A DNA stretch of 64,000 bases. It comes from Octopus vulgaris. Its lineage: Eukaryota. This document shows positions 3,750 through 63,740 of this stretch, in pieces (position 1 is the first letter of the stretch; each line of letters opens with the position of its first letter). Made by a program: the position numbers and the translations under genes. A model generated the notes under the pieces. That model saw nothing but the letters and a program-made list of their open reading frames with translations. It searched no databases and was not told the origin of the DNA. The stretch lies in contig OX597839.1 of NCBI GenBank assembly GCA_951406725.2, forward strand, positions 1,488,001 through 1,552,000, written 5' to 3'.

Positions 3750-6700
3750 CTATGGGAAAACAAAACAACACGTAAATAATGAATAAATGTTCTGAAATAG
3801 ATTGTTGCATTTTTAGTAATTATTAGTCGTATTCCTGCCTATTAATTACTTATCGACACCATTTAAAATATGTACATCACTGAATACAAGCTTCGAACTT
3901 AGAGTTTATAAGTATGGATAATATTCTGTTTTAATCTTCTCAGAGTTGTGAGAGTGTGTAAGATTGTATATAAACGTCATCTTTACAGTGTAGCGGATTT
4001 AGGACATGAAGCTTTTGCATACATACACACACAGAGATGCACGCATACATTGCACGTACATACACGCACATATACACAAACTTATATATATATATATACG
4101 ATGAGCTTCCACACAGTTTCCATATACCAAATTCCCTCTACAGGCATTGGTGGGCCAAAGGTGCAGTAGAACTGAACTCGAACCATGTATGTATGTATGT
4201 ATGTATGTAAGTATGTATGTATGTATGTATGTATATATGTATGTATGTATGTATGTATGTATGTATGGATGGATGGATGGATGGATGGATGGATGGATGG
4301 ATGGATGGATGGATGGATGGATGGATGGATGGATGGATATACACAGACATAAACACATATGTATGTATGCGTCCTTGTGCCTTCGTTCATGTATATTAAT
4401 GTATATGAAATTTATATGTATGCTCAGACTTAAAACACGTGCTAAATATAAAACATACTCTAAAGTACAAATGGCGGTTTTTTTCTGAGTCTGCATTACA
4501 CATACCTCTTTTTGTTCGCCAGTCAGTTATATTTTCCAAATGAAGTTCCTTCTCATCTTCTGGGTCCAATTTCTCATGCCCCTTCAACTGAGCCTTTATC
4601 ATAAGATTTAAAGGGTTTTTATGCATCTGCAAAATATGTAAATCTATTGATTAAAGTTTTCATGAATATAGAGAAATTAAAATGGTGCATATTTTTTTTT
4701 CTCTAGTTTCAGCTCAGAGCTGCGGCCATGCTGATGCACCGCTGTTTTGTGCTACACTGTTATTACGAAGAACCTGGTGACACTTGGTGAAGAATGGAGT
4801 TTGACATAGCTACACTCATTTGCACCTCTTGCCGTGAGGTAGGTTCATCTGGGACTCTCGACAGGAAGATGTCCAGCTTTGATTTAAAAACCGCTACATC
4901 TACTTTGTACAAGTTCCTCAGACTCTTCGGGAGAATATTAAAAAGCTGTGGGCCCTTGAAACCCAGGCTGTTGCAGGAGATGGTCCTGAAGCGTGATGGC
5001 ATTGCTGAGATCTTTGGCACTATGCAGTGTCGTCCCGTTCTAGCATTGGTGTAGCTTACAATGCCAAAATTTGACACAATTCCTTCCGGGATCTTCCAGA
5101 CATATATTACTGCATACCTCTCCCGTCTTCTCTCCAGGAAGTAGAGTCTTAGCTGTTTCAACCTTTCCCAGTAGCTGAGCTGTTGCAAAGAGACGATCTT
5201 CTTTGTGAATCTTCTCTGGATTGCTTCAAGGTCCGCAATTAATTTTACACTGGTGGGTGACCATAGCTGTGAGCAGTAATCCAGGCGGCATAGGTTTATA
5301 TGTTCAAGAAGAGTAAACAAGCTGCACACAGGGATGTGCCAGCGTAAAATAGGCGCTTTCTTTAGGTTTTTTAAATATACAAAAAAAAAAACTGCCCTTC
5401 GTCTAATGCGGCCGTGTTGACACACTACATCTCAGTTGCCTGTTGGAGCTACCCTGCCAATCCCTTCGGCCAATAAATTCTCTTCTTCTTAATCCTATTG
5501 AAATACTATCGAATACTAATTCTCCATATTCTGTGTACTATTTATATTCTGAATACAGTATTGATATTCCAAATATTTTTTCTGATATACTGAAATATAC
5601 AGCATGTTAACTTTAAAATTGAGTTTCAATATTCAAACTATGATGAAGATATTTAGCTGCTTTTTCTAGCATATGAAACGACGACGTAGAGGGTACCTCA
5701 TGTCCTCGATTGTTCAAATCTACACACATAAGAAGATAACAGAATGAAAAATATCAAAACTTACATTCTCATTAACTCCAATTTCTTTTCGTTGTTGTAT
5801 CAGTTGTCTGCAAATCTTCCTGAAATACATTTGGTTTCCCAAAACAGTTCTTGATAATCCAGATTTTTCTATGAGTTTCACTGCAGATGGCAAAAGAACT
5901 GAAAAAAAAATCGGTAAAATTGTGATTTTGTTTTTTTGTTTTCAAATACAGTTAGCGCCAAAATAAATATAATTCAAAGAAAATCAAGGTTTTGTATTTG
6001 GGAAGGACGCTCTATACAGTTAGAAGTTCAAGCAAGGCTGTTTATGGAAGAACAGCAACCACCCATGCATATACATGTACATACATGCATATATATACAT
6101 ATATACATACACACGCATATATGCATGTATATATCTATATGATGGCTGCCCCGTCGTTATCGAGTATGGCCATTGCACGAAGATTAACAGTTATTGGTGC
6201 TGTGGTCGAATGTGAGATTTTAGCCCAGCTAAAGATCCACAATGTCTTGTACAGAATTGGCAGCTAAAACCATTTACCGGCAATAGTTAGCTGTAGTTGT
6301 AACTGGGCTTCATGTACCTTTGCATGTCATCTAAGTCTTCCCGCCGATTTACAGTCTCTTCCACATACCTGAAAGATATGATTAAATTGGTGTGTAGCAC
6401 CACCACCAGTGGCCATGTTGTCACTCATCTGTCTCGCTTTATTACTACAAAGATGACTCTTGAGTCTAGCTTTACTGAGGCAGGGTCTTGCGCAGACACT
6501 GCATGTCAGTATCATAGGAATACCCTTCCCATCTGGAAGTGTAACAGCGAAGCCCTTCCTGACATCCGTCCTTACTTTCTTATGTATATATATATATATA
6601 TATATATATATATATATATATATATATTGATAAAAATGGTAAGACAGCAAAAGAAAGAGACCTCGATATTATGTAAATAGAGGAATTTATCTGTAAATGT

Positions 6701-9700
6701 AATATGTGACAATTATTCGGTAGCCATGATAAAACTCCGGATGTCGGGGTGGATAACTGAACAGGTGGCAGCGTGGATTTCCACCTTGGCTACCGAATGA
6801 TTGTCACATATTACATTTACAGATATATACATATATATATATATATATATATATATATATATATATATATATATATATATATATATAAACGCAGACATAC
6901 ACATGCACGCATATATATGTATATATATTATGAATATTTGCACGAGTGCATAAATATGTATATATATGTATATACTGCCATCGCTAGACACTAAAACTTT
7001 TTTAATTCTCTCTCTGTTTATTTTCTCGAGTTCCTTTCTGTTGGAGAGCGTAGGCTCAACACTTCAAAGATTCTCTCACCTTCCCGAGTGTTAAACTAAT
7101 ACAACTGTTTGTTATTTACACACCTATCTCCATGTTTTGTTTTTGTTTTGTAAATTCCATATATATATGTATATAGATCACTTTCTCGCACCCTCTCTCT
7201 CTCTCTCTCTCCCTCTCTTTTTCCTGGTGTCGCTAAAAGCTTTGAAGGTGGTGCTCCAGTATGGCTGCAGCAAAATATAAGAAACAAGTAAAAGAATAAA
7301 AGAATAACGTATGGCAATCACATCGTGGTAGACTCATTTTACCATTCAAAAGACTCCCACATTGTAAATACTATCATTTTCCTATCGCTGTCCCCATACG
7401 ATCACCAGTTGATCAAAACAACAATGAAATCTTCCAAATCATAGAAAGTCAGTACTAACGTGACAAAAAGATGGCTGGATTGAAGATACTAATTTTGAAT
7501 ATATCTTTGGCCTTTTCAACCAGTGGATCATTTGGATTCTTCTGTGAGTCCACCATTATCCCAAATCCTGTGGCAGCTATGACGTCCATTGTATATGCTG
7601 AGAACGATCTGAAATAAATAAAAACAAGAAATATATATATATATACATACATACATACATACATACATACATACATACATACATACATATATATATATAT
7701 ATATATATATATATATATATATATATATATATATATATGTATATATATGTGTATATATATATATATATGTGTGTATATATATATATAAATATATAAATAT
7801 ATATATATATATATATATATATATATATATATATATATATATATAAACAATTGCAGCGTGGAAGTTGTTTGTAAGCCATTTAAGAAACACACAAAAGCCG
7901 TTCGATTCACTTCAACATTTAAGTTTAATTTGTCAAAATATTTTCGTCGCTTTAAGACCGCGACCTGTACACTGTTGAAGTGAATCGAACGGCTTTTGTG
8001 TGTTTCTTGAATGGCTTACAAACACCTTCCACGCTGCAATTGTTTTCGTTTCAGCACACGATCTCAGATCAAATCATTTGCTATGCAAGTACATCTCCGT
8101 AATATATATATATATATATATATATATATATATATATATATATATATATATATAGTATACACATATATGTGAAGAGAGAGAGAGAGAGAGGCACAACAAC
8201 TGAACGGTTGAGGGATGGAACCAGTGTTTCAATGATACTTAATTTATCGACCGCCAAATGTGGAAAAGTACAGTCGACCTCGGCAGAATTTGAACTCAGA
8301 ATGTCAATGTAGAAAAAATGACAGTAAATAATTCACCAGGTGAGTAAATGAATGTCAGCTCGCCGCATTAACAACAACAACAACAACAACAACAACAATA
8401 ACAACAACAACAACAACAATAATAATAATAATAATAAAAATTATAATATTAATATTAATAATAATAATAATAATAATAATAATAATGATGATGATGATGA
8501 TGATGATAATAATAATAATAATAATAATAATAATAATAATAATAATAATAATAATAATAATAATAACAACTGTAATTGTAAGGACCCTAATATTAAGCTC
8601 GCTAATTAAGTAAGCTAATTTAAGAGTTAGCAAAACAATGTGTAATATAAAATGAATTCTTACTTCGTCCTAAAAGCAATATCATATTTAAATTAAATGG
8701 TAATCGTCTAATTTCTTAATTACTTGAATTATGGAAGATTTCTGCACCTCTTCCCCTTTCTATATTTATTATGGCAAGAAGACATCCATTTGATTTTCTT
8801 ATATCATTTTCTTCGCATTTTCATTATATATTAAACGAACTTAGCCTTAAGTTATTGTAAAATATTTCTCGTGGAGTACTGACATCCAACGTTTTAATAA
8901 TTCTTTCTTATTTGGGGCACAAAGCCAGCAATTTGAGGTGTAAGATTCTAGTACTTGACAGTTGAATATTTATTCAGCACTGAAAGGAAAAGTCGATCTC
9001 GGCAGATTTTAACTCAGAACGTAAAAAGCCGGAATAAATACTTCTAAGCATTTTATTTTACGATCAAACGATTTTGTCAGCTTACCACCTTCCTTTCATA
9101 TAATGATGAGAGAAATTAAAAATTCAAAAACAATAGTTGAGTATTCTTACATACTTTTTAACATCTTTGCCTGTTCCACTTTCTGCCATCTTCCCTATGT
9201 TTTCCATCAACGTATCAGCACATGATTGAATCATTGTGTTCATCTACAAGAAAGAGAACGGCTCTTTGGAAAACAAGCTAACCAAGAATAAATATTTTAT
9301 TATTTATATCTCAGATGTCATTCGAACAAACACTTCAACCTTTGACCCAAAGCCATACAGTCTTCTATCTCTAAATTTCCTATCACATCTACATTGTCTC
9401 TAATTCTCTGATTTGTTCATCTGGACTCTTGCTTGCCAGACACTCACCTGAACAACCCTGACAGACCCAACACTAAGTAACTAAATTCAAACCTTCCTAC
9501 CGTAGACTGTCATTCCTATAAAGCTATCTATCTACCCATGTTTTATCATTTGCATTCAGCATATCAGGGCCTGCAATTTCTATGTGTATAAATCTTTCCT
9601 CTAATCCAAAGTACTAAACAACAATGAAAAAATATAGAATATATAGGACTGATTGAGACTTTGATACTTAGGTTGATATTATCTATTAGACCTGTGCTCA

Positions 9701-63590: not shown

Positions 63591-63705
63591 TATATATATA
63601 TAAAGTTAATCCAAACATGTAAACACAAAGAGAAAACACAACAACGCGAGGACATGGAACAAGTATAGTATTATAGGACACTCAGGAAAGGAGGAAAGAA
63701 GGATG

Positions 63706-63740
63706 GTTTAACGTTTCGAGCGGAGCTCTTCGTCAGAAAC
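63706..63740 (-). ncRNA. Minimal type I hammerhead motif (copies at 32230-32264 and 40750-40783)
   Basis: gttt-CTGACGA-a-gagc-tcc-gctc-GAAAC-GTT-aaac. Confidence 0.65.

Follow-up and report, generated by a model that had tools for sequence, protein, structure and literature searches.

Penelope-like element fold-backs with one tailed and one untailed end in TA tracts of the Octopus vulgaris genome

Fold-back structures in a duplicated, microsatellite-rich locus

A stretch of 64,000 nucleotides of the Octopus vulgaris genome (assembly GCA_951406725.2, contig OX597839.1, positions 1,488,001 to 1,552,000 of the forward strand; referred to here as the window, with positions counted from its first letter) contains a series of palindromic, or fold-back, insertions related to Penelope-like elements (PLEs). 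Comparison with their relatives, searched in 2.8 Gb of genome in 227 contigs, revealed that the two arms of a fold-back usually end differently on the outside, one running through a terminal tail and the other stopping before it. The window is microsatellite-rich and, according to self-comparison, is made up of two units of a tandem duplication of ~32-36 kb, which the neighbouring stretches extend to an array of at least five such units. An earlier note made from the sequence of the window had claimed seven fold-back structures in or next to TA tracts, with one arm generally reaching further. Inverted repeats are present in all seven, each lies in or beside a TA or TG tract, and one arm is longer in six, the longer end of D being visible only in the neighbouring duplicate. 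With their revised ends, the structures are the following, together with a solo copy and a hairpin of a seventh family:

24257..27698: G, fold-back of a PLE assigned by motifs as Neptune-type; untailed arm 24257-25657 (-), tailed arm to 27698 (+) with the tail at 27630-27698; C-terminus of the reverse transcriptase (RT) and GIY-YIG domain in the tailed arm; hammerhead cores at 27469 (+) and 24414 (-), variant CUGAUGC
19831..21620: F, fold-back of a PLE assigned by motifs as Hydra-type, inserted into a TA tract that belongs to another repeat; the sense copy at 21266-19831 (-) bears the tail, and the inverted arm at 21267-21620 lacks it; variant hammerhead core CCGAAGA at 19998 (-)
35894..36929: E, fold-back of a Hydra-like PLE; the arm at 36500-35894 (-) is untailed and includes the endonuclease C-terminus, and that at 36501-36929 (+) is tailed, its 154-nt tail occupying 36776-36929; core of the hammerhead at 36016 (-)
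39522..39754: C, fold-back of 233 bp from an older F subfamily; left arm (-) tailed, right arm (+) untailed; complete hammerhead in the right arm (+), core at 39659, GUC site
6627..6825: A, the insertion of C as found in the adjacent unit of the duplication; deletions of 7 and 27 nt have taken away the 3' half of its hammerhead
7846..8101: B, fold-back belonging to a family whose hammerhead core is of G3-C8 type (GUGAACA); 57-nt tail at 8045-8101; this copy has lost the 5' core by truncation
59443..59642: D, old fold-back of a ~625-bp tandem unit without open reading frame (ORF); half a hammerhead core only
63604..63812 (-): H, solo copy with a hammerhead whose core lies at 63736; its relatives occupy 32130-32298 and 40652-40873
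43761..43995: seventh-family hairpin with one long and one short end; duplicate at about 11383-11600; no hammerhead or ORF identified in it

The largest structure and E had been placed at 24254-27653 and 35893-36777; both exist, with true ends at 24257-27698 and 35894-36929, and tails of 69 and 154 nt had been missed. The hairpins given as separate at 6626-6823 and 39520-39753 are real too, but A (6627-6825) and C (39522-39754) have identical flanks and the same junction, and are present again in two more full array units. They are thus one duplicated insertion, and the window records six insertion events, not seven. The series had also been extended to 63740, where the element (H) carries a hammerhead but is a solo copy and no fold-back; a second, inverted match is absent in all of its 40 best genomic matches. 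Arm identities are 99.7% over 1406 bp in G, 97.5% over 357 in F and 95.7% over 279 in E, and for the small structures 90% over 72 bp in C, 97% over 37 in A, 97% over 72 in B and 78% over 51 in D.

The array also gives access to filled and empty sites. In other units the site of B (7846-8101) is a plain TA tract twice, holds an H-family copy twice and in one case contains E plus B, while the site of E is a bare TA run with no insertion in the unit at about 3300. These empty sites are plain TA tracts, in which a target-site duplication cannot be read out. A mariner-type element (34536-35828, Transposase_1, E 1e-22) with terminal inverted repeats of ~100 bp adjoins E in one duplication unit only, and a short AT-rich imperfect palindrome lies by an (ATAG)n tract at 12575-12671, also in one unit.

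Outer ends, inner junctions and kinship of the arms

Each family has two fixed 3' ends, and the tail is the segment between them, 65-71 nt long in F/C, 154 in E, 69 in G, 57 in B and about 40 in the seventh family. The association of these ends was counted in a sample of C-type loci collected with an exact 33-mer of the shared core, which has 1145 genomic matches; the first 100 in chromosome order gave 88 distinct places, about four listed places not being included, and this is the only sample free of score selection. Fold-backs of 85-582 bp occupy 52 of the 88 loci: 51 join a tailed to an untailed end, one has two untailed ends and none has two tailed ends (binomial p 1e-14 against 0.5). Both types of end are nevertheless common alone, since the other 36 loci show tailed ends only (21) or untailed ends only (15).

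The same asymmetry was found in the other families. In B, 50 of 52 fold-backs from 90 loci combine the two ends, as do all 15 of a subset selected by the tail, and in E the proportion is 15/16 among 30 loci, the tail of the exception being cut off at the locus edge. Young F copies, of 500-4069 bp, gave 17/20 from 40 loci; on inspection two of the three exceptions have tailed and untailed outer ends and the third runs past the analysed stretch. The family of G was counted by hand because false tail matches in AT-rich sequence defeated the automatic classifier of ends, and besides the window copy 11/11 fold-backs conform (17 other loci; all 18 candidates scored). The seventh family, which served as a test case outside the earlier list, has unequal ends and differing junctions at 9/9 distinct fold-back loci, the query itself being a hairpin. 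Apparent pairs of two tailed ends were rejected as alignment artefacts or internal tandem junctions. The short hairpins bear the PLE insertion signature, as had been proposed, and the unlisted one at 43765-43995 (43761-43995 in the list above) shows the same; the fixed ends of terminal-inverted-repeat type, which the earlier note had named as the refuting case, did not appear, the ends being unequal and the junctions variable.

Inner junctions and arm lengths were scored on 53 C-type fold-backs, recovered in a looser pass over the sample. The junctions are distinct in 47 of the 53 and mostly flush or with an overlap of a few bases. The untailed arm reaches further 5' in 27, the tailed arm in 17, and nine are ties; in the window, the untailed arm is the further-reaching one in B, C and E. 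Four of the 53 possess an arm consisting of the tail only, a configuration also met in E, G and D, in which this arm adjoins its partner without overlap and shares no sequence with it. A TA run follows 58/71 tailed and 44/70 untailed ends, against a background of 6.7%. The 5' ends do not accumulate at the position cut by the ribozyme: one of the 53 tailed arms stops there, and most continue past it; a seeming accumulation at -181 results from the alignment breaking at a T run.

The two arms of a pair usually come from one source lineage. Arm-to-arm mismatch is lower than between shuffled partners in F (0.8 vs 2.5%), B (3.6 vs 5.6%), C (10.5 vs 13.2%) and G (3.3 vs 5.1%), and subfamily alleles agree between arms in 28/30, 27/30 and 44/48 cases at three columns. 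Editing of the template RNA was discarded as a cause of the differences between arms, no excess of sense-strand A>G being found in five of six families. In B (e.g. L302, L305 and L314), a branch-point, a pyrimidine tract and a CAG-like run lie directly 5' of the hammerhead, and many 5' ends fall within 5 nt; no spliced form behind this splice-acceptor-like run was found, though the run coincides with a strong 5' stop, and contigs from four runs, which cannot show RNA ends, contained no intron joint.

PLE parentage and hammerhead motifs

G and F encode RT C-termini and GIY-YIG domains, RVT_1 and GIY-YIG of G being below the Pfam cut-off. The F endonuclease is matched at 95-100% identity by the best 150 of 23,813 first-look candidates, with open frames of up to 717 amino acids. 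The protein of this length (locus L201) has no Pfam match and 815 unnamed homologues; it displays RWK and DKT motifs, a CxCx5C linker and CxxC and CxH around the endonuclease end, and lacks CCHH, and the F family is assigned to the Hydra clade by the motifs listed in section 11 of PMC8557442. The endonuclease end of E is related to the F protein (tblastn) and longer E copies extend into the RT, but E is called only Hydra-like because it lacks the cysteine linker. G is assigned as Neptune-type by its motifs, namely a CX4CxxC linker and a GIY-YIG domain with the CCHH arrangement, together with microsatellite targeting.

The earlier note had suggested that short palindromes resembling MITEs (miniature inverted-repeat transposable elements) are truncation products of PLEs. 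This stands for A and C, which are 82-88% identical to the 3' end of F and represent an older F subfamily with a longer 3' untranslated region (UTR), an F-like ORF being linked in 2/88 loci; fold-backs of the C/F family range from 85 bp to over 4 kb. Among the short hairpins, truncation of an autonomous PLE is demonstrated, by this homology, for A/C only, as no ORF-bearing parent was found for B and D. No linked ORF was found by tblastn in 60 B loci or 30 D loci, with top candidates only scored, nor in 90 B loci, nor among the best 150 scored matches of a frame in the B tail. B copies end at a microsatellite about 230 nt from the 3' end, and no tandem array of B was observed. D is an ORF-less unit of ~625 bp with fixed borders, mostly single or in partial tandems, whose tail is composed of a TA-rich spacer and the first ~40 nt of the next unit; this tail is retained, beyond the spacer, on the left arm of a duplicate located 98 kb upstream. 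Loci L206 and L207 contain partial tandems (pseudo-long terminal repeats, pLTRs) whose tail continues into the beginning of the ORF.

Several further PLE copies were encountered. At 51600-56213 (+) lies a Hydra-type PLE that is frameshifted and nearly full-length; an N/T/Q-rich insert separates its RT from its endonuclease, and the element ends in (TA)33 and has a hammerhead at 56108 (helix I GCGG/CCGC, helix III ACAUAUGU); a weak Desmo_N match at 51914-52801 was rejected as the N-terminus of another PLE ORF. A Hydra-like PLE at 59705-63040 (-), in a TA tract adjoining D and present in this duplication unit only, has a long asparagine-rich insert that recalls the N-rich inserts of rotifer PLEs described in passages of PMC3846280. 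Locus L050 (G000:C1:62410292-62413324) shows a C-type 3' UTR after an RT fragment unlike the F-family RT, suggesting a chimera or nested insertion. In run X3 (presumed RNA), one contig matching L206:5300-6500 loops from the ORF into the terminal repeat with a unit of about 2.6 kb, either a tandem or a circle.

Hammerhead ribozymes were searched with a relaxed minimal descriptor following the available passages of PMC4209133, in which helix III had to be palindromic at 60% only. It gave nine matches in the window, all in PLE-type 3' ends, against one in 20 shuffled windows; in loci totalling 1.45 Mb it gave 139 distinct matches, where two shuffles yielded 0 and 1. The claim that most structures carry the motif holds for four of the six events (G in both arms, F, E and C), while it is incomplete in A (3' half deleted), B (5' core truncated) and D (CUGANGA half only). 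By family, the descriptor is satisfied in C/F, E, G, B and H, and in 0/13 for D; a permuted hammerhead in D was rejected, as no pairing exists and the missing GAAA half occurs in an older relative. Rfam hammerhead models were absent among the 150 listed of 344 window matches and among eight matches on 20 short stretches, and no match was obtained with a strict descriptor based on a monomer helix III.

Covariation of the stems, proposed as a check, is seen across ~20 families, in which helices I and II keep their pairing despite different sequences; in most of these families helix III is palindromic over its whole length. Compensatory changes inside any one family are few. The palindromic helix III is a known dimer design, and dimeric folding is predicted for the motif. 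In B and G, helices I and II are recovered in the predicted folds, with z-scores of only -0.5 to -2.2. The ribozyme comes from the PLE repeat and is frequently cut through.

The cores deviate from the consensus in several families. G3 and C8 occupy their positions in at least 90% of 25 aligned B copies, of which 12 satisfy the whole descriptor, the core of G is CUGAUGC (A9 to C) in 9/10 matching copies, and U4 is changed to C in three families. Cores with U3-A8 (UUGACAA, UUGAUAA) were noticed in at least four further families among the analysed loci. In the window, family K (1256-1345, 1658-1790 and 33627-33800) consists of hammerhead-like repeats CUGAUGA-AGGC...GAAAC by (TAA)n, two diverged copies standing head to head at ~1256-1751; a CUGAAGA-GGUC...GAAA core by (TAA)n, not satisfying the full descriptor, is found at 18290-18360 and 56900-56990 (-).

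Passages of PMC4209133 and section 8 of PMC3088659 report only U3-A8 in nature, and low in vitro activity is reported in the former for minimal PLE hammerheads. The motifs studied here share with those the type I topology, the extra base before helix II, G10.1-C11.1 and the palindromic helix III, and differ by the G3-C8 core of family B and the change of U4 to C in three families (PMC4209133, same passages). These loci supply natural core variants G3-C8, U3-A8, U4C and A9C. C3G/G8C is an engineered rescue of the hammerhead. A list of PLE hammerhead variants was reportedly given by Lunse et al. in 2017 and may already include G3-C8.

Origin of the fold-backs and significance for PLE integration

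The fold-backs are probably, in our judgement, head-to-head pairs of 5'-truncated PLE copies generated in (TA)n in a single event, both nicked strands having primed reverse transcription, one at the inner and the other at the outer start site. From the finished insertions we infer an RT-endonuclease dimer, the nicking of two strands, a shared template and the order of events. The dimer would nick the TA tract on both strands, each 3'-OH then priming either on a single uncut RNA or on sister RNAs. Synthesis of both complementary DNAs (cDNAs) would halt early, and the joining of their 3' ends would involve 0-5 nt of microhomology or a small number of additional bases. An outer-primed cDNA halting at the inner primer would leave non-overlapping arms, similar to L1 twin priming, and one displacing the other cDNA, or copying a second template, would produce an inverted repeat, while a single surviving cDNA would give a solo tailed or solo untailed copy. 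Hairpins of 0.1-0.3 kb would then be the short extreme of the size range of PLE insertions, and the hammerhead a passenger from the PLE terminal repeat. Priming on two strands is favoured because it fits the near absence of same-end pairs, the fact that either arm can be the longer one and the tail-only arms. It also has biochemical parallels, since a PLE protein cuts and extends both target strands in vitro, with two start sites bounding the tail, and has been modelled as a dimer, with uncut RNA as the main template (PMC11167929).

Some observations weigh against this interpretation. In vitro, the two strands showed no difference in start site, which taken alone would allow same-end pairs (PMC11167929), and their exclusion therefore requires an additional constraint. 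The hairpin queries of the first C, first B and seventh-family searches favour hairpins resembling the query, and D rarely folds back, its window copy having two like ends. In E, mismatch between the arms of a fold-back is not significantly lower than in random pairs (2.2 vs 2.5%, p 0.115). One B column is independent between arms (17/49 discordant), suggesting two templates in some events. Long fold-backs carry ORF sequence in both arms, over more than 1.5 kb in three young F loci, and thus call for one RNA read twice or for a second RNA. In B, where the A/G site at column -94 segregates independently between arms, a pairing of arms of different haplotype is common to two unlinked loci, L313 and L317; both could possibly reflect a source transcript with two unlike repeats.

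Self-priming, in which one cDNA or antisense template snaps back at a palindrome and copies itself into the inverted arm, is unlikely as an alternative. It has been proposed for rotifer PLEs (in passages of PMC3846280) and would suit the near-identical arms of young copies, the 3/53 C-type junctions located within the palindromic helix III and the TGCA shared by 6/21 arm-selected B junctions. A copied-back arm cannot, however, reach further 5' than its template, yet the untailed arm does so in 27/53 fold-backs and in B, C and E of the window, nor can it gain a tail that the template lacks, and tail-only arms share no sequence with their partner. Self-priming is thus contradicted as a general route and could still explain a subset with the longer tailed arm. 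We regard as slightly less likely the back-to-back arrival of two independent insertions, or ribonucleoproteins, in one TA tract. Re-targeting does occur, the same tract holding B, an H-type copy or E plus B in different duplication units, and the 78% identity of the D arms, the discordant B site and the two B loci with arms of different haplotype point the same way. Independent events nonetheless predict same-end pairs about half the time, against 1/52 observed, and TA left between arms whose junctions are mostly flush; moreover, the arms share subfamily alleles at the three columns, and identity within pairs exceeds that between loci in F, B and G, although not in E.

It is highly improbable that the short hairpins are MITE-like units moved by a DNA transposase with TA duplication, or self-propagating ribozyme hairpins. 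Their outer ends are fixed and TA-flanked, they are numerous (2203, 600 and 859 first-look candidates), some junctions recur, and L313 and L317 share an odd combination of arms. But the ends are unequal, unlike terminal inverted repeats, the internal structure is not fixed since 47/53 junctions are distinct, and the same ends cap copies with ORFs of up to 717 amino acids; loci with a common junction mostly differ in haplotype, and the identical hairpins found are segmental duplicates. The mobile, ribozyme-bearing retro-hairpin class envisaged in the earlier note does not withstand these variable junctions: the hairpins are dead-end by-products and are more aptly seen as the lower extreme, in size, of what PLE insertion produces.

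The fold-back architecture, the TA targeting and the hammerheads were already known, and what is added here is the counted asymmetry and the mechanism that it favours. In the available passages of Craig et al. 2021 (PMC8557442), Hydra-clade PLEs have tails of 30-40 nt; inverted 5'-truncated copies, often with a tail at one end only, and a TA bias are described, and the origin of PLE inverted repeats and tails is named an open task. The families studied here resemble them in the F-family motifs, the hammerhead and the (TA)n targets, and differ by tails of 57-154 nt, by a one-tail rule that is now counted and by E, which has RT and endonuclease ends but no cysteine linker. G resembles Neptune-type PLEs in its linker, CCHH arrangement and microsatellite targeting, and differs in its core CUGAUGC, on motif grounds. 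Paired hammerheads on opposite strands, 100-700 bp apart, were reported in truncated PLEs by Cervera and de la Pena 2014 (PMC4209133, passages). Non-autonomous PLE derivatives are likewise documented, in parts of bioRxiv 10.64898/2026.07.22.740005 and, for Chlamydomonas MRC1, of PMC8557442. D is similar to non-long-terminal-repeat retrozymes in its lack of ORF, partial tandems and PLE-type ends, and B may be similar, but with its half core and mostly single or partial-tandem copies D falls outside the definition of active retrozymes given in the passages of that preprint.

In L1 twin priming, two target strands prime on one RNA and an inverted 5' segment results. The internal site at which the second L1 primer anneals varies, and the segments are free of overlap, whereas here both starts are fixed and the arms usually overlap. 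Neither a one-tail rule nor twin priming was found stated for PLEs in the searchable literature (titles, abstract openings and passages), nor were tails of 57-154 nt or a natural G3-C8 core; the accessible text of a recent octopus repeat annotation contains neither 'hammerhead' nor 'palindrom'.

In a genome that holds thousands of young copies, one tailed and one untailed end, with either arm the longer, constitute a countable rule for choosing between models of PLE insertion. Those who annotate repeats should look for unequal ends in short palindromes flanked by TA before labelling them as MITEs. More tentatively, and with something short of real confidence, we propose that PLE integration is by default a two-primer process, in which the dimer would place the two target strands on two fixed starts of one RNA, and which would have left in this genome thousands of MITE-like palindromes of 0.1-0.4 kb and non-autonomous riders, including one with a natural G3-C8 hammerhead. 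If true, default two-primer integration would account in one step for the tail, the inverted repeats and the solo copies of PLEs.

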